From assembly GCA_027340875.1 (NCBI GenBank), contig DAIENX010000062.1:1-24553 (forward strand): 24,553 bases of DNA, given 5' to 3'. The notes under the pieces were generated by a model. The model was given only the letters and a program-made list of their open reading frames with translations. It was not told where the DNA came from and made no database searches. The stretch comes from Elusimicrobiota bacterium (lineage in GTDB: Bacteria; Elusimicrobiota; Elusimicrobia; Elusimicrobiales; UBA9959). The position numbers and the translations under genes are program-made. This document shows, piece by piece, positions 1-21,215 of the stretch. Within the stretch, counting starts at the first letter, position 1. Every line of letters begins with the position of its first letter.

Positions 1-870
1 CATAGACACCGTAAAGCAGGCCGAGCTCTTCGCCGCCATCCGCGAGCATTACGACATACCCCGCAAGGATAACGTCTCCCTTAAGGATTACCCGACGATA
101 CGCCACTGCATCAGGTTCGTCATTGAGTCCAAGGCCGGAACCGCCACGGCTACCGCGGCCCATGCCCCGGCACAGACAGCAGCGATGTCCGTTGTCCAGG
201 CTGTCCCGGCACCCGTTGCAGCGCCCGCAGCCGGCGGGGTCGCCGAGGACGCCGTGCGCGAGACAATACTGAACATGATCGCTGAGAAGACCGGCTATCC
301 CAAGGACATGCTCGAGCTCGACCTCGACATGGAGGCCGACCTCGGCATAGACACCGTAAAGCAGGCCGAGCTCTTCGCCGCCATCCGCGAGCATTACGAC
401 ATACCCCGCAAGGATAACGTCTCCCTTAAGGATTACCCGACGATACGCCACTGCATCAAGTTCGTCCTTGAGTCCAAAGGAGGCGCCGTTGCTGCCCCGC
501 AGAAAGTGGCCGCGGAGGCCGCTACCGCACCGGTGCAGGCCTCGCCCGCTCCGAAAGCGGCTCCGCAGCCAGCTCCGGCGCAGAAAGTGGCCGCAGCGGC
601 CACCCCCGCCGCGGCCCCGGCCGCCGGCGGAGTTTCCGAGGACGCGGTGCGCGAGAACATCCTGAACATGATAGCCGATAAGACCGGCTATCCCAAGGAC
701 ATGCTCGAGCTCGACCTCGACATGGAGGCCGACCTCGGCATAGACACCGTAAAGCAGGCCGAGCTCTTCGCGGCGATGCGCGAGCACTACTCGATAGCCC
801 GCCGCGACGACCTCTCGCTTAAGGACTACCCGACGATACGGCACTGCATAAAGTTCGTGCTCGACGCCAA
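1..870 (+). repeat. Tandem ACP-domain repeats (partial copy 1-~130; copies ~240-478 and ~630-870)
   Basis: Positions 1-113 are identical to 346-458, and 287-378 are identical to 680-771. Offsets are 345 and 393 nt. A 15-nt repeat gcagaaagtggccgc occurs in the linker at 499-513 and 580-594. Confidence 0.95.
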
Positions 871-3499
871 GAGCGGAGCCGCGCCGGCCCAGACAGCCGC
901 GGCCGCAGTCCCCGCTCCGGCCAAGCGCCGGCAGAAGCCAGAGCAGCCGGAGCTGCTGGACCTCACCGCGGAGGAAGAACCCCCGGTCGCCGCCGAGCCT
1001 AAGCCGGCAAAGCAGGAATACCCCAAGCGTCATATACGGCATGTGCCCGTCATAGTCCCGGCGCCGGTGGAACAGGAAGTCATAAAGAAGCTGGCACCCA
1101 AGAGACCGGTGGCGATCTTCTCGGAGGACCTTGACCTGGCCAAGGCCTTCCGCGCCGAGCTCAATAAGCACCGCGCGGATTCCTATATCTTCACCCCGGC
1201 CAAGACCAAGCTGAAGGACTCCATAACGGTGGACTTCAAGGACATACCGGCCATGGAAAAGGCGCTGCAGGACTTCTCCGCCGAGCATCCCGACACGCAG
1301 GGCGTGGTCTACCTGACCGGCTGCATGGTCAAGTCCCTTTCCAAGGATACCGACGCCTTCGGAGACCTGAAGCGCTACGCGCTGCCGCTGTTCCTGGCGA
1401 CCAAGTACCTGTCCGCCGGGCTCAACAAGGCCGACGCCGGGCACACCACGTTCATGGCGGTGGTCACCACCCTGGACGGCGGCTTCGGCTACCGCACCAA
1501 GGACGCCTACGACCCGATCTACGGCGCCATCCACGGCCCCACGCTGTGCATCCGCAAGGAGTTGGAGAACAGCGCCGTGAAGATGCTGGACTTCGAGCCC
1601 AGCTCCTCCAACCAGCTCATAGTGCAGAAGACCTTCTACGAGATACTATACTCGGACAAGCGGCTGGCGATAGGCTACGCCGATGGCAAGCGCTGGACGC
1701 TGGTGGGCAAGCCGCAGGCGCTGGACATGTCCAAGCCCACGACCCAACTGGAAGGAAAGAACGTCCTCGTGACCGGCGCGGGCCGCGGCCTGGGAGCCAT
1801 GTTCTCCAGGATGCTGGCGGAGCAGCATAAGGCCAACATCCTGATCATAGACCTGATGGAGATAGGCGACAAGGCCAAGCGCCTGACCAAGATGAGCGAG
1901 TCCGAGCTGAAGGCCTGGAAAATGGGCGAACTCTGGAACGAGCTGAAGAACGGCCCGGAGAAGGCCACCCCCGCGCTGCTCGAAAAGGAATATACGCGCC
2001 TCAAGGACGCAGCCGACATGCACAGGAACATGGAGGCGATACGCGCCCTCGGCGTGAACGTGACCTATTACCGCTGCAACCTGACCGACCAGACCGCCTT
2101 CGACAGGACGATGGAGAGCATCAAGTCCGACTTCGGGCAGATAGACGGCGTGGTCCATTTCGCCGGCCTCGAGCGCTCCAAGCTCGTGGTGGACAAGGCG
2201 GTGGAGGAGTTCAACCTGATCTTCAACGTGAAGGCGGACTCCGCCATCAGGCTCTGGAAGTCCGGCATCGTCAAGGAGAAGGGCTTCTGGGCCATGGCCT
2301 CGTCGATAGCCGGTAAGTTCGGGAACCTGGGCCAGAGCGACTACGCGGCCGCCAACGACTACGTGGCCAAGTTCTGCGTCAGCCAGCAGAACCGCGGCGT
2401 GCGCGCCGTCAGCATAGACATGACCGGCTACGCGCAGATAGGCATGGGCGCCCGCCCCGGCGTCGAGGCGTTCCTGAAGTCTCAGGAGATGGAGTTCCTG
2501 TACCCCGAGGAGGGCATGCAGGCCTTCGTGGACGAGATAGCCTACGGCAAGGTGCCGGAGATCATACTTTCCGGCAGCCTGGGCAAGCTCGACTGGGACA
2601 AGCAGCTGCAGTACGAGCCCAACTTCTCCCCGTCGGCCTCCACCGGCTTCCACTTCGTGCCGAAGCTGGTCGACCTGCTGAAGGGGGAGATGCTGGCAGG
2701 GGTGAAGGACTTCACGCTGGCCGCGGACCCGTACCTGGCCGACCACTCCATAAACGGCACCCCGTACGTGCCGGGCGTGATGGGTCTCGAGACCTTCGCC
2801 GAGGCCGCGGCCCTGGTGACCGGCAAGCCTCCGAAGGCCCTCACCGGAGTGCGCTTCGCGGTGCCGATAAAGCTGCTGCGCAACCGCGACGCCGAGGTCC
2901 GGATAAAGGCGGAGGCCTCGGGCGGGGCAGTGGACATGCGCCTAGAGTCAGACTTCATCAGCCCCAAGGGACAGAGGCTCGGACAGACCCGCACCCACTT
3001 CAAGGCAGTTTCAGCGGAGGATGCCCCTTCGGCCTGGAACACCGGCATGCGCCCGCGCCTGCCCAAGTCCGCCAAGTACAAGACGGAAGCGCCGGTGATC
3101 TACAAGACCTACTTCCACGGTCCCAGTTTCCAGGTCCTCGACGGGATACTGTCGCTGGACAAGGGCTCGGTGCTGGCCGTCTTCAAGCGTCCGCAGGCGC
3201 CGCTCTGGAAGCAGGGCGCCCAGAAACTGGTCTTCCATCCGCTGGTGTTCGAGGCGCTCTTCCAGGCCTGCGGCTGGAGGGACATACAGTTCGACAGGAC
3301 CATGGCCCTGCCGGACGCTATAGGCGCCGCCATCGCCTACGACCACGAGCCGCTGGACCCCGAGACGCTGTTCCTCTACGGCGTGTTCAAGGGCAGGACG
3401 GAGGACAACAGGAGCCTCTACGACGCGTGGGCTTTCGACGGCGACTACAACCTGTTCGCCGAGCTGAGGGACTACGCGATGATCCCGACGCCCATCTGA
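2..3499 (+). CDS. PfaA-like iterative type I polyketide/fatty-acid synthase, C-terminal part (tandem ACP x>=3 - KR - double-hotdog DH); 5' end lies upstream of window
   Basis: The frame is open from position 2 (IDTVKQAELF...), so the ORF-track Met at 185 is internal. ACP motif LELDLDMEADLGIDTVKQAELF is repeated with Ala/Pro linkers. KR motifs: VLVTGAGRGLG, VVHFAG, SSIAGKFGNLGQSDYAAAN. DH motifs: YLADHSINGTPYVPG, FHGPSFQVL, HPLVFEALFQ. Stop TGA at 3497-3499. Confidence 0.92.
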   Translation: MDTVKQAELFAAIREHYDIPRKDNVSLKDYPTIRHCIRFVIESKAGTATATAAHAPAQTAAMSVVQAVPAPVAAPAAGGVAEDAVRETILNMIAEKTGYPKDMLELDLDMEADLGIDTVKQAELFAAIREHYDIPRKDNVSLKDYPTIRHCIKFVLESKGGAVAAPQKVAAEAATAPVQASPAPKAAPQPAPAQKVAAAATPAAAPAAGGVSEDAVRENILNMIADKTGYPKDMLELDLDMEADLGIDTVKQAELFAAMREHYSIARRDDLSLKDYPTIRHCIKFVLDAKSGAAPAQTAAAAVPAPAKRRQKPEQPELLDLTAEEEPPVAAEPKPAKQEYPKRHIRHVPVIVPAPVEQEVIKKLAPKRPVAIFSEDLDLAKAFRAELNKHRADSYIFTPAKTKLKDSITVDFKDIPAMEKALQDFSAEHPDTQGVVYLTGCMVKSLSKDTDAFGDLKRYALPLFLATKYLSAGLNKADAGHTTFMAVVTTLDGGFGYRTKDAYDPIYGAIHGPTLCIRKELENSAVKMLDFEPSSSNQLIVQKTFYEILYSDKRLAIGYADGKRWTLVGKPQALDMSKPTTQLEGKNVLVTGAGRGLGAMFSRMLAEQHKANILIIDLMEIGDKAKRLTKMSESELKAWKMGELWNELKNGPEKATPALLEKEYTRLKDAADMHRNMEAIRALGVNVTYYRCNLTDQTAFDRTMESIKSDFGQIDGVVHFAGLERSKLVVDKAVEEFNLIFNVKADSAIRLWKSGIVKEKGFWAMASSIAGKFGNLGQSDYAAANDYVAKFCVSQQNRGVRAVSIDMTGYAQIGMGARPGVEAFLKSQEMEFLYPEEGMQAFVDEIAYGKVPEIILSGSLGKLDWDKQLQYEPNFSPSASTGFHFVPKLVDLLKGEMLAGVKDFTLAADPYLADHSINGTPYVPGVMGLETFAEAAALVTGKPPKALTGVRFAVPIKLLRNRDAEVRIKAEASGGAVDMRLESDFISPKGQRLGQTRTHFKAVSAEDAPSAWNTGMRPRLPKSAKYKTEAPVIYKTYFHGPSFQVLDGILSLDKGSVLAVFKRPQAPLWKQGAQKLVFHPLVFEALFQACGWRDIQFDRTMALPDAIGAAIAYDHEPLDPETLFLYGVFKGRTEDNRSLYDAWAFDGDYNLFAELRDYAMIPTPI

Positions 3500-4128
3500 T
3501 GACGGCGGCGATGCGCGAGCTCCGGGAGGTCTGGCCTGGCACGGGCGCCAGCGTTATTTACCTGCCCGTGGAGGGCCAGGTGCCCGGCGGCTTCCTCTCG
3601 GCACGGGAAAACGCTGTCTACTCTGCGTTCCAACTGGAGAAGCGGCGCCGCGAATGGCTGGCCGGCCGGCTGGCGGCAAAAACGCTTCTCTCCGCCGGGG
3701 GTCTCGCCCCATCCGCCTGCGAGATAGGCATGGACAAGTTCGGCCGCCCCTGCTGCGGGCAGTCGCTGGTATCCATATCCCATTCCAACGGTTGGGCCAT
3801 GGCGGCCATAAAACCTGGCTCCACCTTCCTCGGCGCCGACCTGGAGAGGATAGAGGAGCGCCACCCGGCCTGGTACAGCGACTATTTCCATCCGGCGGAA
3901 CTCGCCTCCCGCGACCCTTCCGAAGCCACCAGGATCTGGACCATGAAAGAAGCCCTGCTCAAGGCGCTGGGACTGGGTTTGATGGCCGACCCGCTGGACA
4001 TCAGGACCGGGGAGAGGATAATGCTTTCCGGGAAAGCGCTGGAACGCCACCGCGAGATGGGCGGCCCCCATTATTCCGTTGAGACAAGGAGCTATCCAGA
4101 AGGTTTCTGGGCCGCGGTAGCCGCATAA
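3499..4128 (+). CDS. Sfp/PfaE-type 4'-phosphopantetheinyl transferase
   Basis: Motifs RRREWLAGR, GRP, SISHS, GADLE and WTMKEALLKALGLG. The ATG at 3499 overlaps the PKS stop (TGATG) and is preferred over the ORF-track start at 3427. Confidence 0.92.
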   Translation: MTAAMRELREVWPGTGASVIYLPVEGQVPGGFLSARENAVYSAFQLEKRRREWLAGRLAAKTLLSAGGLAPSACEIGMDKFGRPCCGQSLVSISHSNGWAMAAIKPGSTFLGADLERIEERHPAWYSDYFHPAELASRDPSEATRIWTMKEALLKALGLGLMADPLDIRTGERIMLSGKALERHREMGGPHYSVETRSYPEGFWAAVAA

Positions 4129-4227: not shown

Positions 4228-5859
4228 ATGTCAGATCTAATGGAAGATCCCATAGCCGGAGCGTCCCAGCAGGGCGCCAAGAAGCCCCATCCCAAGAAGG
4301 TAAGGGTGGTCCCGGAATCGCTGAAACGCTTCCGCGAGATACACGCGGCGGCCGAGGCGGGAGGGCCGCCGGACAAGGTGGAGGCCCAGCGGAAGAAGGG
4401 CAAGCTGACGGCCAGGGAGCGCATCGCCTACCTGGTGGACGAGGATTCCTTCCAGGAATTCGGGCTGCTGATGGAGTCCCGCTGCACCGATTTCGGCATC
4501 AAGGACAAGCACATAAAGGGCGACGGCGTCATAACCGGCTTCGGCAAGGTCAACGGCCGCCTGGCCGCCATCTTCTCGGAGGATTTCACTCAGCTGGGCG
4601 GCTCGCTCGGCCGCACGCACGCCGACAAGATCGCCAAGCTGATGGACATGGCCGCTGACGCCAGGATACCCGTGATAGGCATCCTGGACTCCGGCGGCGC
4701 CCGCATCCAGGAGGGCGTGGACTCGCTGGACGGCTACGGCGAGATCTTCTACCGCAACACCAAGTATTCCGGGGTGGTCCCGCAGATCTCCATCATAGTC
4801 GGGCCCTGCGCCGGCGGCGCGGTCTATTCCCCGGCGTTGACCGACTTCGTCTTCATGGTCAAGGGCATGAGCAACATGTTCGTGACCGGCCCCGAGGTGG
4901 TGAAGGCGGCCACCGGAGAGACCGTGGACTTCGAGACCCTCGGCGGCGCCTCCACGCACGCCTCCAAGTCGGGCGTCTGCCATTTCGTGGCCAACTCCGA
5001 ACCGGACTGCTACCGCCAGGTGAAGGAGCTGATGAGCTTCCTGCCGCAGAACCGGTTCGAGGCGCCCCCGTCGCACGAGACCAAGGACCCGTCAGACCGC
5101 CGCGTGTCCCTTATGGAGAAGCTCTGCGAGGTGGACCCCCGCAAGCCCTACCGCGTCAACCACATAGTCTGGTGGCTGGCAGACGACCACAAGTTCCTCG
5201 AAGTGCACCACGACTACGCCAAGAACATCGTGATCGGCTTCATACGCCTGGGCGGACAGGTGGTGGGCGTGATAGCCAACAACCCGGCCCACATGGCCGG
5301 CGCGCTGGACATCAACGCCTCCGACAAGGCGGCGCGCTTCATCCGCTTCCTCAACAACTTCAACATCCCGATACTGACGCTGGTGGACGTGCCCGGCTAC
5401 TGGCCCGGCGTGGCGCAGGAGCACGGCGGCATCATCCGCCACGGCGCCAAGCTGCTGTACGCCTACTCGGAGGCCAGCGTGCCGAAGATAACGCTGGTGC
5501 TGCGCAAAGCTTACGGCGGGGCCTACATCGCGATGAGCTCCAAGCTGATGGGCGGCGACATCAACTTCTCCCTGCCGTCCGCGGAATTCGCCGTGATGGG
5601 CCCGCGCGGAGCCATAGAGATCCTCTACTCGCGCCAGATCAAGGAGGCCAAGGAAGAGGAAAGGGAGGCTCTGAGGGCGAAGCTCGCCAAGGAGTACTCG
5701 GATAAGTTCGCCTCGCCTTACCAGACCGCTTCCACCGGCTCCATCGACGAAGTGATAGAGCCCGTACAGGCCCGCGCCAGGCTGATCTCCGCCTTCCGCC
5801 TGCTCGCGGATAAGCGCAAACCGGGGGAGAACGAACGCACGGGCAACATACCGCTGTAG
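4228..5859 (+). CDS. Acyl-CoA carboxylase carboxyltransferase subunit (PccB/MmdA-like, fused beta+alpha CT domains)
   Basis: Motifs GKLTARERI, GDGVITGFG, DSGGARIQEG, GPCAGGAVYSPALTDF, MFVTGP, DVPGYWPG, GIIRHGAKLLYAY, RKAYGGAY and C-terminal GNIPL. Confidence 0.95.
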   Translation: MSDLMEDPIAGASQQGAKKPHPKKVRVVPESLKRFREIHAAAEAGGPPDKVEAQRKKGKLTARERIAYLVDEDSFQEFGLLMESRCTDFGIKDKHIKGDGVITGFGKVNGRLAAIFSEDFTQLGGSLGRTHADKIAKLMDMAADARIPVIGILDSGGARIQEGVDSLDGYGEIFYRNTKYSGVVPQISIIVGPCAGGAVYSPALTDFVFMVKGMSNMFVTGPEVVKAATGETVDFETLGGASTHASKSGVCHFVANSEPDCYRQVKELMSFLPQNRFEAPPSHETKDPSDRRVSLMEKLCEVDPRKPYRVNHIVWWLADDHKFLEVHHDYAKNIVIGFIRLGGQVVGVIANNPAHMAGALDINASDKAARFIRFLNNFNIPILTLVDVPGYWPGVAQEHGGIIRHGAKLLYAYSEASVPKITLVLRKAYGGAYIAMSSKLMGGDINFSLPSAEFAVMGPRGAIEILYSRQIKEAKEEEREALRAKLAKEYSDKFASPYQTASTGSIDEVIEPVQARARLISAFRLLADKRKPGENERTGNIPL

Positions 5860-5867
5860 CTCCGGGA

Positions 5868-5899
5868 AGGGCCGGCCGCGAGGCCGGCCCTCTTCTTCC
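5868..5899 (+). terminator. Probable intrinsic terminator after the carboxyltransferase
   Basis: 10-bp stem AGGGCCGGCC / GGCCGGCCCT with a GCGA (GNRA) loop, followed by pyrimidine-rich CTTCTTCC, 8 nt after the stop. Confidence 0.7.
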
Positions 5900-11550: not shown

Positions 11551-12552
11551 TTAAACGTAGGGGCAGGCGGCGAAGTGACCCGGGGACTTCTCCTGAAGCT
11601 CGGGGACATGGTCCGCGCATTCCGGGCACGCTATCGGGCAGCGCGTCCTGAAGCCGCAGCCGGAAGGCTTGTTCAGCGGGCTGGGGACATCTCCCTTAAG
11701 GATGATGCGCTCGCCCCTGCGCTTGTACGGATCGGGCTGGGGGGCGGCGGAAAGCAGGGCCTTGGTATACGGATGGACAGGGTTCTTATTTACGTCATGG
11801 CTGCTGCCTATCTCCACCATGTTGCCCAGGTACATTACGGCTATCCGGTCGCTGATATGCTCTACCACGGCCAGGTCGTGCGCCACGAAAAGGTAGGTAA
11901 GGCCGAACTCATCCTGCAGGTCCTGGAGCAGGTTGATGATCTGGGCCTGTATAGAGACGTCGAGGGCGGAAACGGGCTCGTCGGCTATTATGAAGGCCGG
12001 GTTTGTGGCCAGCGCCCGGGCCAGGCCGATACGCTGGCGCTGCCCGCCCGAGAACTCATGGGGATAGCGGGAGGCGTAGGCGGCCTGCAGGCCCACCTTC
12101 TCCAGCAGCCAGGCCACCTTCGCCTTCTTCTCCCTGCGCTTCATCTCCGGCTTGTGGATATCTAGAGGCTCCTCTATGATGGCCTCCACGGACATGCGCG
12201 GGTTGAGGGAGGAATAAGGGTCCTGGAAGACCATCTGCATGCGCGAACGGAACGGGCGCATGGCGGCGCGGCCGAGGTTGGCGATATCGACCATTTTGCC
12301 GGCGGCGTCCGGGAACATTATGCTGCCGGAGCTTACCGGGGCGAGACTGATGAGGGCTTTGCCCACCGTGGTCTTGCCGCAGCCCGACTCGCCCACCAGG
12401 CCCAGCGTCTCGCCGGTCTTCAGGGAGAAGGAGACGCCGTCCACGGCCTTAACCTCGCCCACCTTCTTCATGAAAAGGCCGCCATGTATAGGGAAATGGA
12501 CCTTGAGGTCCTTCACGTCGAGCAGATCGCCGCCGGACCGGGACTTCGTCAT
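11551..12552 (-). CDS. oppF: Oligopeptide/dipeptide ABC transporter ATP-binding subunit (OppF/DppF-like)
   Basis: Walker A GESGCGKTT, FQDPYSSLNPR, signature FSGGQRQR, Walker B IIADEPVSALD, HPYT, and C-terminal GCGFRTRC...C...AC. Confidence 0.93.
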   Translation of the reverse strand: MTKSRSGGDLLDVKDLKVHFPIHGGLFMKKVGEVKAVDGVSFSLKTGETLGLVGESGCGKTTVGKALISLAPVSSGSIMFPDAAGKMVDIANLGRAAMRPFRSRMQMVFQDPYSSLNPRMSVEAIIEEPLDIHKPEMKRREKKAKVAWLLEKVGLQAAYASRYPHEFSGGQRQRIGLARALATNPAFIIADEPVSALDVSIQAQIINLLQDLQDEFGLTYLFVAHDLAVVEHISDRIAVMYLGNMVEIGSSHDVNKNPVHPYTKALLSAAPQPDPYKRRGERIILKGDVPSPLNKPSGCGFRTRCPIACPECADHVPELQEKSPGHFAACPYV

Positions 12553-13553
12553 GACCTGTCCTCCCCGCGCGCCTTGCAGAGATGGCAGCGCACCTGCCTT
12601 CCGGGGGAGACCTCTACGAGCTCCGGCTCCTCCTGGCGGCAGATGTTCATGACCTCCGGACAGCGGTTATTGAACTTGCAGCCCCTGGGGAAACTGAAAA
12701 TGTCCGGTACCATGCCCTCTATGACAGGCAGGCGCTTGCCTGGTTCGTTCTTGAAGCCGGGCAGCGAGCGCAGCAGGCCCTTGGTATAGGGGTGCAGCGG
12801 TTCATCGAAGAGCGGCTTGACGTCGGAGACCTCCTGGATCTTGCCTCCGTACATCACGGCGACCCGCTGGCAAGTCTCGGCCACTACGGCCATGTCGTGG
12901 GTTATAAGCAGTATCGCCGCGTCATGAGTCTTCTTCTTTACGTCCAGCATCAGGTCGAGTATCTGGGCCTGTATCGTCACGTCCAGGGCGGTGGTGGGCT
13001 CGTCGGCTATCAGCAGCGCGGGGTCCGAGGCCAGCGCCATGGCTATCATCACTCGCTGGCGCATACCGCCGGAGAACTGGTGCGGGTAATCATTCAGGCG
13101 GGCCTTCGGGGAAGGGATGCCTACCAGCCCCAGCATCTCCACGGCCCGCTCCTCCACCTGCTTCTCGGTCAGGTCCTGGTGGAAGCGGATGGCCTCCTTG
13201 AGCTGCCAGCCTATCGAGAAGACCGGGTTCAGCGAGGTCATCGGCTCCTGGAAGATCATCGAGATGTCCTTGCCTCTTACCTTGCGCATCTCCGGGTAGG
13301 AGAGCTTCAGCAGGTCCCTGCCGCGGAAGTTTATCTCGCCGTGCGTGATCTCGCCCGGCGGATTAGGGATAAGGCGCAGTATGCTCAGGGCGGTCACGGA
13401 TTTCCCGCAGCCGGACTCCCCGACTAGGCCCAGCACCTCGTTCTCGAATATATGGAAGTCCACGCCGTCCACCGCGCGCGCGGTCCTGTCCTCCACGCGG
13501 AAGGCCGTCTTCAGGCCCTTCACTTCCAGCAGCTTCTTCTTTTCAGCCGTCAT
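12549..13553 (-). CDS. oppD: Oligopeptide/dipeptide ABC transporter ATP-binding subunit (OppD/DppD-like)
   Basis: [44 protein letters not shown] and GCKFNNRC. 4-nt overlap with the next gene. Confidence 0.93.
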
Positions 13554-14935
13554 CAGCGCAACCTCGAGAAGACCTTGGGATCGAAAGCCTCGCGCACGGC
13601 TTCGCCTATCTGCACCACAAGGAACAGCGTGGCGGCCAGCGCTATCGACGGCGTAAGTATAAGATTGGGGTAATACTTCAGGTACTGCATGCCCTGGCTC
13701 ATCAGCGTGCCCCAGCTGGGCGTGCCGACCGGCAGGCCGAAGCCGAGGTAGTCCAGCGAGACCAGCGAGCCGATGAAGGCGACTATGGAGAAAGGCGCGA
13801 AAGTGACCACCGGCACCAGCGAGTTGGGCAGGATATGCTTCATCATCACGGACCAGTCCGTGGCACCCATCGCCTCGGCGGCGTGCACGTAGTCCCTGGC
13901 CTTCTCGCGGTAGAACTCGCCGCGCATGTAGTAGGTCATGCCCAGCCAGGCCTGCAGCGCCACCAGCAGGGCGGCCAGCATCCAGAAGCCGGGCTGCACT
14001 ATGGAGGCGATGATCATTATCATGAACAGGAACGGGATGGAGCCCCAGATCTCGATGAAGCGCTGTATCAGGATGTCCGTCCAGCCTCCGAAATAGCCCA
14101 TGACGCCGCCTACGATAATGCCAATGACGTATCCGATAAAAGCCACCATCAGCGCGAAGGAGAGGGAGATACGGAACCCGTAGACCAGCTGCGCGAAGAC
14201 GTCGGCGCCGGAATCGTCCACCCCCAGTATGTGCTGGCGGCCGGGGGGATAGGGCGGACTGCCGTCCCGGTCGAGCAGATGCTCGCTCGGCGAATAAGGG
14301 TAGAGCGGCATCAATATGAACGCCTTGCCGGCGGCGAAAGCCTCCCTGGTCTTATTTACCAGAGCGATGTCGGTCTCTACGGCCGGGACTATCTCCTTCA
14401 GGTCGGCATAGTCCTGCTTCTCGTCCGCCGTGGAGCCTGGCCGGGCGCCGTACCCGGCTACCTGCCTCCTGAAACCGTCCAGCTCCTCGTTGAGCTCAGC
14501 TATCCGCCGGTCAAAAACGGAAGGGTCCTTCAATTCCGCAGCGAAAAGCCGGTAATCCACCTGGCCGTCGCCCACCTGGCCGAAATCGGACTCCACGTCT
14601 ATATGGCTGAAATCCCTGAAAGGCAGCATCGTGTTGGCCCAGTCGCGAAAAGCGGGGAAGGCTATATGCCCCTCGTAGCGTATCGCCAGCGGCTTGTTGT
14701 TGACCAGGAACTCGAGGAAGAACGACGTAACGAACAGCGTGGTGATGATAAGGAAGGAATAGTGGCCGCGCTTCATCGTCCTGAAGCGCTTGAAACGCTT
14801 CTGCCAGTGCGGGGAGGGCTTCATGTCGAAGCCCAGCTTCTTCCCGGCCTCAACGAACAGGAAGGGGAGCGCCCTGTGCGTCAACAGGTGGCCGGCGGCG
14901 AGGACAAGAGCTGCGCCCAGAACTTTTAATATCAT
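13553..14935 (-). CDS. Peptide ABC transporter permease (YejE/OppC-like) with extra N-terminal helix and periplasmic insertion
   Basis: KRFKRFRTMKRGHYSF, EFLVNNKPL, HILGVDDSGADVFAQLVYGFRISL, EAA loop DYVHAAEAMGA, LDYLGFGLP..PSWG and GEAVREAFDP. ATG 14935 overlaps the upstream stop (ATGA). The ORF-track start at 15580 is spurious. Confidence 0.9.
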   Translation of the reverse strand: MILKVLGAALVLAAGHLLTHRALPFLFVEAGKKLGFDMKPSPHWQKRFKRFRTMKRGHYSFLIITTLFVTSFFLEFLVNNKPLAIRYEGHIAFPAFRDWANTMLPFRDFSHIDVESDFGQVGDGQVDYRLFAAELKDPSVFDRRIAELNEELDGFRRQVAGYGARPGSTADEKQDYADLKEIVPAVETDIALVNKTREAFAAGKAFILMPLYPYSPSEHLLDRDGSPPYPPGRQHILGVDDSGADVFAQLVYGFRISLSFALMVAFIGYVIGIIVGGVMGYFGGWTDILIQRFIEIWGSIPFLFMIMIIASIVQPGFWMLAALLVALQAWLGMTYYMRGEFYREKARDYVHAAEAMGATDWSVMMKHILPNSLVPVVTFAPFSIVAFIGSLVSLDYLGFGLPVGTPSWGTLMSQGMQYLKYYPNLILTPSIALAATLFLVVQIGEAVREAFDPKVFSRLR

Positions 14936-15978
14936 TTGCCGAACCTTATCCGCGGGTCTATCATCGCCCAGATAACGTCGGAGAAGATATTGCCGGTCAG
15001 GCGTATCAGCACCCCGAAGACCATGATCCCCAGAAGGACGGGGTAATCGCGCTGGATGATGGACATGTAGCCCAGCAGGCCCATGCCGGGGATATTGCAG
15101 ATCTTCTCGATAAGGAAGGACCCGGCGAACAGGACGCCCAGCGCCTGGCCTATACCCACGGTAAGAGGTATCAGGGAGTTGCGCATCGCGTGCACGAAGA
15201 TGACGCGCTTCTCGGAAAGGCCTTTCGCGAAGGCGGTGCGCACGTAGTCCGCGCCCAGGTTGTCCAGCAGGGAGTTCTTCATCAGTATCGTCATCGACGC
15301 GAAGCTGCCTATCAGATAGCCGATGATGGGAACTATGGTGTGGTGCAACTGGTCCAGCACCTTGCCCGCCAGGCTCAGCTGGGCCCAGTCGGCGGACCTG
15401 AAGCCGCCCAGAGGCACGAGGTTCCAGAAGCTGCCGCCGCCGAACAGCACCAGCAGCAGCAGGCAGGCCACAAAGCCGGGGATGGAATAGCCCATGAACA
15501 CCAGCACCGACGTAGCGGTGTCGTAGCCCGTCTTGTGCTTGATCGCCTTGCTTACGCCCAGCGGCACGCAGACCAGCCACGAGGCGAAATAGCCGATGAG
15601 ACCGAAATAGACGGAAATGGGGAACTTGGAAATTATCACGTCCAGCACAGGCTCGCCGTGCACGTAGGAGCGGCCGAAGTCCAGGCGCATTATTCCCCAG
15701 AGCCAGCCGGCGTAGCCCACCGGGATGCTCTTGTCCAGGTGGTAATACTCCTTCAGTTCCTTCATGGCCTCCTCGGGGATCTGCTGCTCGGACTCCTCGC
15801 TGGCCATGCCCGCCGCGCCGCCCTCTCCCATCATCTGCATCTTGATCTGCAGCTGGGCCTGTTCGATAGGACCACCGGGAACGACGCGGAACACGGCGTA
15901 GACCATGAAGGTTATGGCTATGAAAGTCACCGGTATCAGCAGCACCCGGCGGATGAAATAAGTCGTCATTCCGTGCAT
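14932..15978 (-). CDS. Peptide ABC transporter permease (YejB/OppB-like)
   Basis: YFIRRVLL, VPGGPIEQ, LDFGRSY, KFPIS, YSIPGF, DYVRTAFAKGL, HAMRNSLIP, RDYP and DPRIRF. Start is 15978 or 15969. Confidence 0.92.
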   Translation of the reverse strand: MHGMTTYFIRRVLLIPVTFIAITFMVYAVFRVVPGGPIEQAQLQIKMQMMGEGGAAGMASEESEQQIPEEAMKELKEYYHLDKSIPVGYAGWLWGIMRLDFGRSYVHGEPVLDVIISKFPISVYFGLIGYFASWLVCVPLGVSKAIKHKTGYDTATSVLVFMGYSIPGFVACLLLLVLFGGGSFWNLVPLGGFRSADWAQLSLAGKVLDQLHHTIVPIIGYLIGSFASMTILMKNSLLDNLGADYVRTAFAKGLSEKRVIFVHAMRNSLIPLTVGIGQALGVLFAGSFLIEKICNIPGMGLLGYMSIIQRDYPVLLGIMVFGVLIRLTGNIFSDVIWAMIDPRIRFGK

Positions 15979-15983
15979 AGGTC

Positions 15984-17774
15984 TTATTTACCTTCCGCCC
16001 ACGGGTCCTGGTCCGTGACCCCTACCGGCAGCTTGGCGCCTTTCTCCATCGCCTCGTCCAGGGCCTTTTCCTTCCGGGGATCCAGCCACCACATCGTGGT
16101 TATATCCGAAGCGTCCCCTATCTTGGAGAAATACCGCTCCGGGTGGCCGAACCTGTCGTAGTACATCACCCGGCTGAAATTGGAGGTCCAGGCCAGGGCG
16201 TAGGGATAGGCCCTGAAGATCAGACCGTCTATCTTGTGAACGAGCTTTATCTGCGTCTTCCTGTCCGTGGCCAGGTCGTATTCGCTGCAGAGTTCGTCGA
16301 CCTCCTTGTTCTTGAAGCCGGGGGTATTGTTGTTGTTCAGGGTATCGGCCAGGTCCGAACCCCAGGAGCTGATCGGGTTGGGGAACAGTATCGCGCCCCA
16401 GGGCTGGAACGCTATGGTGAAGTTGCGCTCCCCTATCTTCTTCATCAGCGTGGCCGGGTCGATGAGCTTCAGGTTGAACTTTATTCCGGCGCGCTGGTAG
16501 TCCTCCTGGATCACCTTGAAGATCCGGTCCCAGCTGGGCCAGCCGTACTCCAGCGTGACCTCGAAGATCTCGCCCTTGTCGTTGACCAGCCAGCCGTCCT
16601 TGTTGCGCTTCTTCCAGCCGGCCCTGGCCAGCAGCAGGCGGGCCATGCGCGGGTTATAGCGCACCTTCGGGTTGTCCGGGTTCGCCCAGATGCTGCCGGG
16701 GAAATAGCTGTCTATCGGAGTGTACTGGTTGAAGAAAAGCTTCTCATTGAGGCGCTTGCGGTTGAGCAGGTAGGCGAAGGCCTTGCGGACGTTGCGGTCG
16801 TTGAACGGGGGCTTGCGCATGTTGAACGCGAAGCCGGTGGCGCCCTGCGGGGCGCCGGTGATTATCTTGCGCTTCTGTATCCAGCCGTCCTTGACCTTGT
16901 CGAAGTCGCATTCCTGCGCCCAGCGCTGCGCCTTGCTTACCACGTAGTAATCCAGCTCGCCCTTCTTGAACTTCTCCCAGGCCAACTCCTCGTCCAGGAT
17001 CACCTGCCAGGTGATCCTGTCGAAATTATAGAGGCCGGTATTGTGACGCTCGCCCCAGCCCCAGTAATCCTTCCTGCGGGTGAGGGTCACGGATTCCTGG
17101 TTCTTGATGTCCTCAGGCTTCAGTTCGTAGGGCCCGGAACCCATCTGCATCTTCCAGTTGTAGTCCGAAAGGTATTTCTCGCCGGTCAGCTTCCCCATTT
17201 CCTTTGCCGGATAGATGGCCATGCCGCCGAAATAAAGGAAAAGGCGCCAGTGGACCTTCTTCGTGTGCACGGTGACGACACTGGGGCTCACCACCACAGG
17301 CTTGTCGTAGCTGCCGCCCCACATCATCAGGGAATAAGGATCCTTGATGTCCTTGCGGGTACGGAATTCCCACGTAGCCACAACGTCTTCTGCGGTGACA
17401 GGACTGCCGTCCGCCCAGCGCGCCTTCGGGTTTATATGGAAATAGAACGTGCGCTTGTCAGGGGAGATCTTCCAGTAGTCCGCCAGACCCGGCATGTATT
17501 CCAGAGTTTCAGGATGCAGCCCGACCAGCGCTTCGTAGACAAGACCCTGCATCTGGCTGAGCGTGGAAAGGTTGGAGTTCGGGCCCTCGGTGCGCAGCGT
17601 AGGGGGGAAGGAGGTCCAGAAGAAACGAAGCGTGCCGCCCTTCACGGCTTGGGGTGAACCTATCAGCGGGAAATCCCTGCTGGTCTCCCAGCCGGCGGGG
17701 TTGAAGTCATCGGCCGCGGCGAAAGCGGCACTGAAGAAAAGCAGGGCGGAGAGAATTATCCTGGTTCTCGGCAT
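15984..17774 (-). CDS. Peptide ABC transporter substrate-binding protein (family 5, YejA-like)
   Basis: Signal peptide MPRTRIILSALLFFSAAFAAA, PQAVKGGTLR, ARWADGSPVTAEDV, MGSGPY, DYWG, GLYNFDRI and FNMRKPPFNDRNVRKA. ATG 17774 is preferred to the TTG at 17828, which overlaps the upstream gene. Confidence 0.9.
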   Translation of the reverse strand: MPRTRIILSALLFFSAAFAAADDFNPAGWETSRDFPLIGSPQAVKGGTLRFFWTSFPPTLRTEGPNSNLSTLSQMQGLVYEALVGLHPETLEYMPGLADYWKISPDKRTFYFHINPKARWADGSPVTAEDVVATWEFRTRKDIKDPYSLMMWGGSYDKPVVVSPSVVTVHTKKVHWRLFLYFGGMAIYPAKEMGKLTGEKYLSDYNWKMQMGSGPYELKPEDIKNQESVTLTRRKDYWGWGERHNTGLYNFDRITWQVILDEELAWEKFKKGELDYYVVSKAQRWAQECDFDKVKDGWIQKRKIITGAPQGATGFAFNMRKPPFNDRNVRKAFAYLLNRKRLNEKLFFNQYTPIDSYFPGSIWANPDNPKVRYNPRMARLLLARAGWKKRNKDGWLVNDKGEIFEVTLEYGWPSWDRIFKVIQEDYQRAGIKFNLKLIDPATLMKKIGERNFTIAFQPWGAILFPNPISSWGSDLADTLNNNNTPGFKNKEVDELCSEYDLATDRKTQIKLVHKIDGLIFRAYPYALAWTSNFSRVMYYDRFGHPERYFSKIGDASDITTMWWLDPRKEKALDEAMEKGAKLPVGVTDQDPWAEGK

Positions 17775-17785
17775 TTGTCCCGTAT

Positions 17786-17794
17786 AAAATAGCA
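17786..17794 (-). promoter_or_regulatory. Extended -10 promoter candidate for the ABC operon
   Basis: The - strand reads TG-C-TATTTT, 11 nt before ATG 17774, in an AT-rich 37-nt gap. Confidence 0.45.
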
Positions 17795-17811
17795 AATATC
17801 CCGGAGGTCTC

Positions 17812-19992
17812 CTAGGGTCTGGCGTCAATATTCTTCATTATTATCTCCTTCATGACGTCGAAAGCCGGCGCGGTCCCGGGAGGCAGCTTGTCGGCCAGCT
17901 CGTACACCTCTATCCGGTTGAAGACGCGCCCGCCCTCGGTCTCGCTGAAGGAGAAGACGCCGCGCACGTGCCTGGCCCAGAAGTCGGAGAAGACGGCGCG
18001 GGCCCTGGCATCCCAGTAGAACATACGGTAATCGCGGCCCAGCCGGATCGAGTCCGCGGGATTGAGCAGTATGTGGGTCACGCCGTCCCTGCGCAGGCTG
18101 GCGTAAAGGTCGTCGCCGCTTACGGCGGCAGAGGAATACTCCACTATCGCCGTCCGGTCGTAGACGGAACTGACGATGAAGTCGCGCTTCAGGTAAAAGC
18201 TCTTCTCATCGCCTATCATCAGGACCTTTGAACCGGGCGGCGTATGCTCGTTGATGAACTTTATCCCGGAATAGCAACTGTAAGGATAGGTCGGCTGGCT
18301 GTGGGAGAGATAATCCTCGGCGGATACCGCCCCGGTCAGCGGCCGCCAGCGGCCCTGAGTGTAGAAGATGTAGGCCGCCCAGTAGAGCGCCGCCAGACAG
18401 GAGGCTATGACCGCCCCTTTGAGCAGGTTTTTCAGCGCCCTATGGCCGCCGGAGAACAAGTAGACGGCCAGCAGCAGACCCGCGGCCGGGTAGGCAGGCA
18501 TCATGAAGCGCACCATAGTGGTGGATACCGACCAACCGGCCCAGACGGTCAGAAAGAAGGTCCAGAGGGAGGCGACGGCCGCGCCGGCAGGAGCGCCCAG
18601 CAGGAACAGCAGCGGCAGGAAGGCCAGAAAGAGGGGGGTAAAGAACTCCGAATTCGGGACCTGACCCATCGTCACTTTCCACGGGGTCAGCAGCCAGCTC
18701 GAAGGGGTCAGGTGCCCCATCTGGGCCGCTTGACTTATGAAATCCTTCAGCTTCTGCGGATCGGCGCTCGACCCGGTGCCGAACAGGCCCGAGCCGAAAG
18801 GGAACACCGGGTTGCCGGTATAGAGCCAGTTCTTGACCAGCCAGGGCCCTGTGAAGACCGTGGCGATAAAAGTGAAGAGCGCCAGGTTGCGGAAAGCCGT
18901 ACCGGGCCTGGAACGGTCGGACCAGGCGTAGGCCAGCATGACTCCTGCGGTCGGGAAAAAACCCGTATATTTGACGCCCATGGCCAGGCCGCAGAACACG
19001 GCGGCCAGCCAGAGCGGCCTGTCGTCACCGGCCGCGCGCAAGAGCGCCGCGTACAGGCCCAGCGTCGAGAACAGCATCAGCAGCGACTCGGTGCCGGACG
19101 ACCAGGAAGCGAACATCGCGTGGCATACCGTATAGGATATCAGCGCGCCCCAGAGGCCGGCCCGCAGCGACAGGAAGCGGACGCCGAAAGCCAGGGCCGC
19201 GGCGGCCGTAAGGACGCCGGCGGAATAGTTGACGAACTTCGCGAGCGGCGCGCCCTTCAGCAGCAGGGCCGCGGCATAGATCATGCCGTGCGTGAACGGC
19301 AGGTCGGAATAGAAATTGTACGGCATCGGCGCGAAGCCGTGCATTATCACGAAGAAGTTTGGGACGGCCAGATGATAGACCAGCGCGTCGTAGAAGATCT
19401 CCGGGGCCAGCGCGCCGGCCAGGTTGAGCAGCATGGCCAGCAGCAGGACTCCCAGCGCCGCGAGGTCCCACGGGCCGAGCTCGCCCGGCGCCGCCTCCAC
19501 CGGCGGCAGCGGGCTGCCGCGCAGCTGCCAGGCCCCCAAGGCCAGGGCGGCCAGCATCAGGAGCGCCACAGGCCAGAGATACAGGACCTTGAGCGTCGCC
19601 AGGACGAAGACATAAGCGGCCAGCAGGCCCAACCCGGCCCCGCAGGAGAAAACCGACTCTTCCAGCGCCCCGCGGAAGGAAAGGCCGGCGGCCCTGAGCG
19701 CGGCGCGGCCCAGCGAGAAGCAGGAAAAAAGGAACGCGGCCGCGGCCAGCAGGTTGAGCAGATGCCCGGGCAGTACGGAGACCAGCCCGGCGGTGTACTG
19801 CTCCGGCGCCAGCATGGCCGACAGCGCGTCCAGCCGGGGCATGAACTTCGAATAGTAGGACTTCAGGACGAAGGCGGCCCAGCCGCCCGCGACAGGCCAG
19901 ACCAGCCAGGAGGGGAAACGGGGCTTTTCCTCCGCCGGCCGCGCGGAAGGCTGAGGGACGGGCTGCCGTTCTTTCCTGTGTCTTTTGGCCAT
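17812..19992 (-). CDS. Large polytopic membrane protein, probable GT-C fold glycosyltransferase (ArnT/PMT-like)
   Basis: 726 aa with many TM segments. Loop motif PEIFYDALVYHLAVP, plus GLAMGVKYTG, PWLVKNWLYTGNPVFPF and RFMMP, and a C-terminal soluble domain (FINEHTPPGSKVL...GVTHIL). Confidence 0.7.
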   Translation of the reverse strand: MAKRHRKERQPVPQPSARPAEEKPRFPSWLVWPVAGGWAAFVLKSYYSKFMPRLDALSAMLAPEQYTAGLVSVLPGHLLNLLAAAAFLFSCFSLGRAALRAAGLSFRGALEESVFSCGAGLGLLAAYVFVLATLKVLYLWPVALLMLAALALGAWQLRGSPLPPVEAAPGELGPWDLAALGVLLLAMLLNLAGALAPEIFYDALVYHLAVPNFFVIMHGFAPMPYNFYSDLPFTHGMIYAAALLLKGAPLAKFVNYSAGVLTAAAALAFGVRFLSLRAGLWGALISYTVCHAMFASWSSGTESLLMLFSTLGLYAALLRAAGDDRPLWLAAVFCGLAMGVKYTGFFPTAGVMLAYAWSDRSRPGTAFRNLALFTFIATVFTGPWLVKNWLYTGNPVFPFGSGLFGTGSSADPQKLKDFISQAAQMGHLTPSSWLLTPWKVTMGQVPNSEFFTPLFLAFLPLLFLLGAPAGAAVASLWTFFLTVWAGWSVSTTMVRFMMPAYPAAGLLLAVYLFSGGHRALKNLLKGAVIASCLAALYWAAYIFYTQGRWRPLTGAVSAEDYLSHSQPTYPYSCYSGIKFINEHTPPGSKVLMIGDEKSFYLKRDFIVSSVYDRTAIVEYSSAAVSGDDLYASLRRDGVTHILLNPADSIRLGRDYRMFYWDARARAVFSDFWARHVRGVFSFSETEGGRVFNRIEVYELADKLPPGTAPAFDVMKEIIMKNIDARP

Positions 19993-19995
19993 ATC

Positions 19996-20054
19996 AAAAA
20001 GATGACCGGCGGGCCGGCGGAGGTAAGCCCCTCCCGTCCGTCCGCCGGTCGCCT
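19996..20054 (-). terminator. Intrinsic terminator after the 374-aa gene
   Basis: On the - strand, GACCGGCGG...GGAGG-loop-CCTCC...CCGCCGGTC forms a hairpin followed by ATCTTTTT. Confidence 0.65.
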
Positions 20055-20061
20055 GGCGTGG

Positions 20062-21186
20062 TTATTTCTCGAGCACCTCTATGTTGGCGCGGGGGACCAC
20101 TATGACCTCGCCGCCGTCCAACTTCACCTCGAGCACGCGGGCGTGCGATTCGCTGCCGATGACCGTGAGCTCCGGAGGCAGCGACTTCACGGTGCCGATC
20201 ACGCCGAAATGCGGCTCCCGGATGATCCGTATAGGGTCGCCGGGCTCTATCCACCCGCGCCCCTGGTCCCGCTTCACCTCGCTGACGCCTTTCGGCATGC
20301 CCGGGACGATGATCTCGGGGCGCATGACTCCCGCGCGTATCTGCGTGGCGCCGGACACGGAAGCATGCTCGCCGTTGCGGGAGCTGAGCAGCTTGAAGGT
20401 GTACTCGGCCATCGGGATCATGCCGAAGCCCTCTGTCACGACCAGCGTGGTGCCGATCTTCTCGGAGCCCGTGACGGCTACCCCTATATCGTAGCCGAGC
20501 AGCTGGCGCAGGTCGCGGTCGTATATGCCGCCGACGACTATCGCGTTGACGCCCAGCTCGATGGCCCGCTGTATGGTGGCCAGGCTGGCGTGCTTGCCGC
20601 CCACCACGATCTTCCCGCGGTGGTGCTCCTTGATGGCCTCCGCCTCGAGTTCCTCGTCGGGGCTTTCAACAGCCACGCAGATCTCGCCGTTGGTCTCGCC
20701 GCCGATGCCGAAGATCCCCTGTATGAAGGTGCCTTCGGCCTCCACAGTCACTCCGAAGCCGGGAGTGATCTCGACGATCTTGCCCTTCACGTAGGCCTTC
20801 ACAGGCAGGACCTTCGGTGGCTCGCGCAGCAGGACCTGGCCCGTCACCGGTGAGATGGATTCCACCGTGCCGGCGACCGGCGACTCTATGGAGGTCTTGA
20901 ACCATTTCAGGAAAGGCTTGTTCTCGGCGATCACCTCTCCGGCGGCGACCGTATCTCCTTCCCTCTTCAGCATGAAGCCCGGGATCTCCTCGGGCGACAC
21001 GGCGAGCCGGTTGGCGACGTTGACCGAGAACACCTTGCCGGGCAGCTCGGTCTGGGCCACCACGTCCAGCGCGTCCACGCAGGCGCCCATCTCGGCCATC
21101 ACCTTTCCCGGGATAGGCAGCAGGCGCTTCTTGTGCAGCATCGTGCTGGGCATTCCCTTGAGTCCTGGAGTATACGCATGAGCCAT
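20062..21186 (-). CDS. Uncharacterised soluble protein with barrel-sandwich-hybrid-like N-terminus and KOW/SH3-like C-terminus (partner of the GlmL-like ATPase)
   Basis: 374 aa with an AGGAGA RBS. Hybrid-motif-like segments GKVMAEMGACVDALDVVA and KREGDTVAAGEVIAE...SPVAGTVESI. Gly-rich middle region (IQGIFGIGGE, VVTEGFG, GATQIRAGVMRPEI). C-terminus GDPIRIIREPHFGVIGTV...VPRANIE. Confidence 0.8.
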   Translation of the reverse strand: MAHAYTPGLKGMPSTMLHKKRLLPIPGKVMAEMGACVDALDVVAQTELPGKVFSVNVANRLAVSPEEIPGFMLKREGDTVAAGEVIAENKPFLKWFKTSIESPVAGTVESISPVTGQVLLREPPKVLPVKAYVKGKIVEITPGFGVTVEAEGTFIQGIFGIGGETNGEICVAVESPDEELEAEAIKEHHRGKIVVGGKHASLATIQRAIELGVNAIVVGGIYDRDLRQLLGYDIGVAVTGSEKIGTTLVVTEGFGMIPMAEYTFKLLSSRNGEHASVSGATQIRAGVMRPEIIVPGMPKGVSEVKRDQGRGWIEPGDPIRIIREPHFGVIGTVKSLPPELTVIGSESHARVLEVKLDGGEVIVVPRANIEVLEK

Positions 21187-21215
21187 AGTTTATCTCCTAG
21201 TAGAAGTTCTGCGCG

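Follow-up and report, generated by a model that had tools for sequence, protein, structure and literature searches.

We analysed a gene for a 4'-phosphopantetheinyl transferase (PPTase), together with the multidomain synthase gene that ends directly before it, in the genome of an Elusimicrobiota bacterium (assembly GCA_027340875.1, here G000; 2.8 Mb in 112 contigs, 92% complete). Both lie at the start of a stretch that covers nt 1-24,553 of contig C8, called the window below, and the coordinates of all features are collected in Table 1. The window opens inside the synthase and contains its C-terminal part, in which three tandem acyl carrier proteins (ACPs) precede a ketoreductase domain (KR, approximately nt 1763-2425) and a dehydratase domain (PS-DH, approximately nt 2705-3484), both recognized by Pfam. 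Contig mapping places the N-terminal part, which carries a ketosynthase (KS), an acyltransferase (AT), a second KS (KS2) and further ACPs, at the end of contig C103 (L001:11781-17714). The Pfam domains of the two pieces combined read KS-AT-KS2-ACPn-KR-DH, with at least six ACP copies seen across the contig break. The gene is split over two contigs because the assembly breaks within the near-identical tandem ACP repeats; many related contigs from metagenome-assembled genomes (MAGs) break at the same tandem-ACP place. The best curated NCBIfam match for the synthase is TIGR02813 (PfaA), below its cut-off, and the catalytic motifs are all present: DAACASS (Cys212) and HGT in the KS, GHSLG in the AT, HxxxGxxxxP in the DH and SAACSS in the second KS. 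This last domain (residues ~1000-1560 of L001:11781-17714) was named CLF in the 2011 description of Type R clusters (Shulse & Allen 2011, PLoS One 6:e20146, PMC3098273); the SAACSS motif retains an active-site-like Cys, and the domain thus looks like a second KS.

The synthase stop codon and the PPTase start codon form a TGATG junction, as the first-pass annotation of the window had proposed: TGA (3497-3499) and ATG (3499-3501) share one nucleotide. A second in-frame ATG at 3511, where a database copy of the protein begins (P0001, 100% identical, 205 aa), lies 11 nt past the synthase stop. The real start is predicted to be either this codon or the -1 overlap, and both are compatible with translational coupling. 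The reading frame closes with TAA at 4126-4128. Its product matches PF17837 (4PPT_N, 1.5e-08, 35 bits against a cut-off of 27) and PF01648 (ACPS, 5.6e-11, 42.9 bits against a cut-off of 25), and so shows the two ACPS-like halves in one chain of ~210-240 aa that define group II PPTases. The second hallmark of the group, GxDxE plus (W/F)xxKE(A/S)xxK, is found as GADLE (aa 112-116, nt 3832-3846) and WTMKEALLK (aa 147-155), which begins with the WTMKEA motif (aa 147-152, nt 3937-3954). The first-pass annotation had called GADLE and WTMKEA intact, and they are: D114, E116, K150, E151 and K155 occupy the conserved catalytic positions, and D114, E151 and K155 are kept in at least 99% of 80 relatives linked to carriers with threonine (Thr) at the attachment site, which are described below. 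Further motifs are FGRP (aa 81-84) and VSISH (aa 91-95). The AlphaFold2 (AF2) model of the PPTase has a pLDDT of 93.9. Its top Foldseek match (E 5e-13, TMq 0.69) is 4mrt_A, a structure of Sfp bound to coenzyme A (CoA) and a carrier protein, and the model also resembles AASDHPPT, PptT and PcpS. We collected 155 homologues, and those with names come from Elusimicrobia MAGs. Taken together, these features identify the predicted product of 3499-4128 as an Sfp-type (group II) PPTase.

Downstream of the PPTase lies a gene for an acyl-CoA carboxylase carboxyltransferase subunit, whose role is likely malonyl-CoA supply. In a consensus scan, neither the synthase/PPTase junction nor the gap from the PPTase to the carboxyltransferase yielded a terminator-like site; such a site is present at 5874-5889, after the carboxyltransferase gene. 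We compared this layout with 79 related loci, the closest PPTase loci in species genomes, which belong to Elusimicrobiota, Chloroflexota (Anaerolineae), Bdellovibrionota and Myxococcota. In most of these loci the PPTase frame begins where a long preceding open reading frame (ORF) ends, or right beside that point. A start that overlaps the upstream stop by 1 or 4 nt is possible in 16 of them, and in 66 a PF01039 carboxyltransferase homologue is located no more than 1.5 kb beyond the PPTase. Synthase, PPTase and carboxyltransferase form a conserved unit, and the arrangement of the first two exceeds what would be expected by chance.

To our knowledge, every carrier protein that has been studied in fatty-acid, polyketide or non-ribosomal peptide synthesis bears phosphopantetheine on serine (Ser). 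All seven ACP motifs visible in the genome read DLGIDTVKQAELF, with Thr at the serine attachment position, so that the premise of a "Thr-ACP synthase" in the first-pass annotation holds. HMMER places this Thr opposite the attachment Ser of the PigH doublet ACP and of the Streptomyces coelicolor fatty-acid synthase ACP. In the AF2 model of the ACP (pLDDT 90), helices span residues 5-20, 41-55 and 71-82, with helix II beginning at T41, and the best Foldseek matches are acyl carrier proteins in apo and holo form (TM ~0.8). The PF00550 match, the model and the Foldseek search agree on the helical fold of a carrier protein, in which Thr stands in place of the Ser that canonically opens helix II.

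The same residue recurs wherever we found this type of carrier. Thr occupies the attachment position in 290 of 290 ACP domains across the 111 loci collected in all, encoded by ACG (138), ACC (133), ACA (10) and ACT (9), and both the Thr and its DLGxD context are invariant despite synonymous change. Since Ser is one nucleotide away from any Thr codon and yet occurs in none of the 290 domains, the system appears to discriminate Thr from Ser. No column of the 290-domain alignment reaches 30% Ser, indicating that the ACP domains contain no alternative conserved serine. We rejected the idea that the Thr stems from faulty assembly or translation, since it recurs in hundreds of independent assemblies. 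Using a single ACP as query against 1.84 billion representative proteins, we obtained 6,148 matches at E <= 1e-3 and 880 at E <= 1e-30. The best 150 representatives comprise 107 with Thr only, 42 with Ser only and one mixed protein, and 108 thus have a Thr-type ACP. The Ser-only proteins fall in two clades, with the motifs DSIKRVEIL and DSIKKAQLF. In a phylogeny of 152 ACP domains, computed after removal of the Ser/Thr column, the Ser/Thr state changes only 4 times, compared with a shuffled mean of ~37.6. Judged from these sequence patterns, the Thr of the ACPs is selected and not accidental.

PPTase genes accompany Thr-ACP synthases across phyla. Thr-ACPs lie upstream on the same strand in 62 of the 79 related loci and Ser-type tandem ACPs in none; the remaining 17 contigs stop before the ACPs would be expected, or just at that point. 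The PPTase is placed after Thr-ACP synthases in Elusimicrobiota, Chloroflexota and Myxococcota, and in 14 distinct loci (13 from Myxococcota and 1 from Bdellovibrionota; Table 1) the PPTase domain shares one open frame with the Thr-ACPs. Uninterrupted frames of these fusions reach ~3,180 aa, and several are cut by a contig end. Of 151 sampled Elusimicrobiota genomes, the PPTase was found in 60; Thr-ACPs occur in 58, every one of which belongs to those 60. For two Elusimicrobiota families, f1 and f2, each of the 52 genomes in the sample has both, among them 1.2-1.9 Mb genomes from the gut.

Our Myxococcota sample comprised 121 genomes, 94 of them with a match to the PPTase profile, and we examined the contexts of 100 of ~152 matches. 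The 60 best-scoring contexts yielded 59 classified cases (one was a duplicate): 46 Thr-linked, 5 cut and 8 with no carrier in the stretch. The next 40 gave 3 Thr-linked, 2 Ser-linked (L161 and L170), 6 cut and 29 unlinked PPTases. A Thr-linked PPTase is found in at least 50 of the 74 Myxococcota genomes examined, and, among the contexts examined, 16 of 50 genomes with a Thr-linked PPTase also retain an unlinked Sfp-type PPTase. The ~2,320-aa synthase at L161 and at L170 shows a single, Ser-type ACP motif (NLGFDSLM), and the PPTase lies ~3.7 kb downstream of this motif.

We also asked which other loaders and carriers the genome of the window encodes. The only other PPTase match in the genome is an AcpS-type gene (~120-137 aa, contig C46), and the only other carrier (PP-binding) match is AcpP, which has a normal DSL motif (DLGADSLD). 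With no other clients or loaders detected in the genome, elimination leaves the coupled PPTase as the most plausible loader of the Thr-ACPs, and to regard it as Thr-competent is a reasonable inference. The housekeeping AcpS is an unlikely loader, because the S36T variant of Escherichia coli ACP, used as a dead control, is reported as neither modifiable by 4'-phosphopantetheine nor functional (PMC3340395).

The synthase itself may have a central role. A tblastn search of the genome with its KS, AT and KS2 returned no further match at E <= 1e-5. PF00109 matches above ~25 bits and the single PF00698 match fall exclusively inside the Thr-ACP synthase in G000 and in two relatives: G191, 97% complete in one contig, and G136, 99% complete in four. 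When the survey of fatty-acid genes was extended to G195 and G239, FabZ-like genes were present in all five genomes and a FabH-like gene only in G000 and G239; G000 has AcpP, AcpS and one FabZ-like gene. Since the synthase holds the only elongating FabF-like KS and the only FabD-like AT found, the Type R synthase, catalogued as "secondary", may serve these bacteria as their main fatty-acid synthase, in which case it would need working carriers.

We infer that the window PPTase transfers phosphopantetheine onto the Thr of the upstream ACPs, a reading that we hold with moderate confidence. Production of the enzyme would be tied to that of the synthase, through translational coupling in this genome and through direct fusion of the two proteins in other phyla. 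Using CoA and Mg2+, it would move 4'-phosphopantetheine onto the hydroxyl of the Thr that opens helix II in every tandem ACP (DLGIDTVKQAE, with the proposed acceptor Thr as the sixth residue). This would turn the Thr-ACPs into the holo carriers required by the KS, AT, KR and DH domains.

Several observations weigh against Thr loading by this enzyme, or against the idea that it is specialized for Thr. We found no paper describing Thr as a PPTase substrate in the literature searched. The first-pass annotation had argued that a dedicated, coupled PPTase is what a Thr problem would call for; this argument is not supported, since linked PPTases are described as accompanying most Ser-type Pfa-like clusters as well (PMC3098273). 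Dedicated PPTases are the rule there, and coupling itself is uninformative about Thr. We compared 80 Thr-linked with 34 unlinked or Ser-linked PPTases, setting aside 5 rows labelled "none" that fall inside Thr clades or on long branches, and found no Thr-specific catalytic residue: all residues conserved in at least 80% of the Thr-linked set are also common in the other 34. The largest contrasts are only partial (K61, 95% vs 29%; T144, 81% vs 24%; K150, 99% vs 56%). The Thr label is strongly clustered on PPTase trees but not monophyletic. A FastTree phylogeny of 136 rows, with every third Elusimicrobia locus of L004-L071 and an unresolved backbone, requires 17 changes of the label vs 43.3 when shuffled, and a quick IQ-TREE phylogeny of 62 rows, with 8 long-branch rows dropped and every third Thr row kept, requires 4 vs 20.4. 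A single clade of Thr-linked PPTases was rejected by the approximately unbiased (AU) test in the 62-row analysis (p = 0.021), although the linkage labels, and with them this test, are noisy because "unlinked" PPTases may serve distant Thr-ACP genes.

Further cases involve Ser-type carriers. In G215 (L201; 98% complete) and G275 (L202), a PPTase of the clade adjoins the carboxyltransferase gene, with no synthase adjacent in G215, and the only tandem ACPs found in these genomes are Ser-type (DLGIDSIKRVEILSA; DSIKRVEIL), on other contigs. G215 also has another Sfp-size PPTase (C33), a possible loader of its Ser-type synthase, so this case is not decisive. The L161 and L170 PPTases, linked to a Ser-type carrier, pair up on the tree outside the Thr-linked clades. 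P0240, a 534-aa fragment, is the sole mixed protein of the best 150; in it, two Thr-type ACPs come after one divergent Ser-type ACP (DLGVDSIKQAEAF). What stands of the earlier proposal of a candidate Thr-competent PPTase is a dedicated enzyme that is the best loader by elimination; the part that read coupling as diagnostic of a Thr problem does not. It is doubtful that the PPTase is Thr-selective and rejects Ser carriers, and Thr-exclusivity, or an orthogonal enzyme/carrier pair, is not supported.

The missing catalytic signature, the lack of a single clade, the clade members in G215 and G275 and the mixed chain of P0240 would all fit an ordinary promiscuous Sfp-type PPTase that loads Ser and Thr alike. 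Thr would then be kept for another reason, for example insulation from AcpS or from ACP phosphodiesterase, or stability of the linkage, and there would be no orthogonal pair. We regard this explanation as possible but rather unlikely: something keeps Ser out of the 290 domains, 16 Myxococcota genomes keep an unlinked Sfp-type PPTase in addition to the Thr-linked one, and the additional PPTase of G215 could serve its Ser-type synthase. A different explanation is that the Thr domains are pseudo-carriers, structural or regulatory repeats that are never pantetheinylated, and that the PPTase serves another protein. The reported behaviour of E. coli S36T and the lack of any precedent for Thr pantetheinylation in the literature searched are in its favour. 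It is nevertheless improbable, since the synthase would be left without any carrier in a genome that otherwise has only AcpP, while its KS, AT, KR and DH motifs are intact and no elongating KS outside it was found in several near-complete genomes; the invariance of Thr and DLGxD under synonymous change and the fusion of the PPTase to the same polypeptide in 14 loci also argue against it.

The AcpS-type enzyme encoded on C46 could in principle load the Thr-ACPs, with the window PPTase redundant or differently targeted. Such a gene does exist in the genome, but enzymes of the AcpS type usually act on type II ACPs only, the one from E. coli is reported not to accept S36T, and the co-occurrence in 58 of 58 genomes, the adjacency and the fusions would be left unexplained; we consider this very improbable. 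Least credible of all is that the Thr bears some other prosthetic group, or that acyl groups are bound to it directly as oxoesters. Nothing speaks for this beyond the unusual residue itself, and the PPTase linked to the carriers is of the canonical kind, its conserved catalytic motifs being intact.

Loading of Thr by the coupled PPTase would have consequences beyond this locus. We lean slightly towards the broader view that a very large, multi-phylum family of type I synthase carriers uses Thr as its attachment residue, that linked or fused Sfp-type PPTases pantetheinylate this Thr, and that such a synthase is the sole fatty-acid synthase in Elusimicrobia. The size of the family is judged from three figures: 108 of the 150 best representative clusters, 50 or more of the 121 Myxococcota genomes in the sample, and the 52 of 52 genomes of the two Elusimicrobiota families. 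If true, PPTase chemistry would extend to a secondary alcohol. A carrier/loader pair insulated from the host AcpS and Sfp could follow, only if selectivity were shown. As the synthase is seemingly the sole source of an elongating KS and a malonyl transferase in several Elusimicrobia, the question also bears on membrane lipid synthesis across the phylum.

Table 1. Features of the window and loci with fused PPTases.
Feature	Position	Strand	Basis or remark
Type R (PfaA-like) synthase, C-terminal part: 3 tandem ACPs, KR, PS-DH	2-3499	+	Pfam
Thr codon, attachment position of first ACP (ACP truncated by contig start)	8-10	+	translation
Thr codon, attachment position of second ACP (DLGIDTVKQ)	353-355	+	aligns with Ser of solved ACPs; first helix II residue in model
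Thr codon, attachment position of third ACP	746-748	+	translation
TGATG stop/start overlap, synthase/PPTase	3497-3501	+	sequence; comparable junctions in related loci
Sfp-type PPTase, 209 aa	3499-4128	+	Pfam, motifs, AF2 model, Foldseek
Acyl-CoA carboxylase carboxyltransferase subunit	4228-5859	+	PF01039, 6.3e-177
Four consecutive ORFs, 245, 273, 222 and 417 aa	7972-11462	-	DUF6754 (3.2e-111) in the last; no Pfam match in the other three
Opp/Dpp-type ABC transporter operon	11551-17828		
PF13941 "MutL protein" gene	21216-23009		
Fusion loci	L073, L076, L096-L098, L100, L101, L103, L105-L107, L111, L114, L116		PPTase at synthase C-terminus, in frame

Two large ORFs (726 and 374 aa) that have no Pfam match lie between the Opp/Dpp-type operon and the PF13941 gene, within 17812-23009 on the minus strand.

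No curated NCBIfam equivalog fits the window PPTase. HetI (28.9 bits) and AcpT (20.9 bits) were tried and rejected, as both scores are far below the cut-offs of 370 and 174. A full-text literature search, outside which most subscription journals lie, returned nothing relevant on Thr pantetheinylation, on Thr replacing the carrier Ser or on the motif itself, and we found no later characterization of the Type R cluster in the literature searched.

The synthase/PPTase pair belongs to an already catalogued kind of cluster. Type R secondary lipid synthase clusters are described as a pfaA homologue with the domains KS-MAT-CLF/KS-ACP(3-6)-KR followed by a PPTase gene, and are reported from Koribacter, Solibacter, Elusimicrobium minutum and Roseiflexus, in the phyla Elusimicrobia, Acidobacteria and Chloroflexi (PMC3098273). 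An acetyl-CoA carboxylase gene is linked to the cluster in Koribacter, and the Type R product was stated to be unknown in 2011 (PMC3098273). The synthase studied here has this architecture, with KS-AT-KS2-ACPs on C103, ACPs-KR-DH in the window and a second KS that keeps its Cys. Type R PPTases are characterized there by the absence of motif P0, by x(G/D)xP as P1a and by hShxH as P1b' (PMC3098273), and the window PPTase agrees, with FGRP as P1a, VSISH as P1b' and PGGFLS instead of the P0 consensus hRxhLS. Thus, neither the PPTase, an enzyme of a known kind, nor its linkage to the synthase is new. The word "threonine" does not occur in the main text of the Type R paper (PMC3098273), whereas the carriers here have Thr, and the Thr proposed as substrate residue is apparently undescribed.

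The comparison extends to two well-known PPTases. PfaE of the omega-3 polyunsaturated fatty acid (PUFA) synthases, whose equivalent in the Type R operon is the window PPTase, is likewise a dedicated enzyme encoded with a PfaA-type tandem-ACP synthase. The motifs given for PfaE, P0 (hRxhLS) and P1b ((F/S)NxSH), are both absent from the window PPTase, and PfaA ACPs read LGIDSIKRVEI, with Ser, unlike the Thr-type ACPs of the window. Sfp of Bacillus subtilis (PDB 4MRT, 1QR0) shares the two-lobed group II fold and the catalytic motifs with the window PPTase at an identity of ~21%. The known substrates of Sfp carry Ser, whereas the only plausible substrates of the window PPTase carry Thr.

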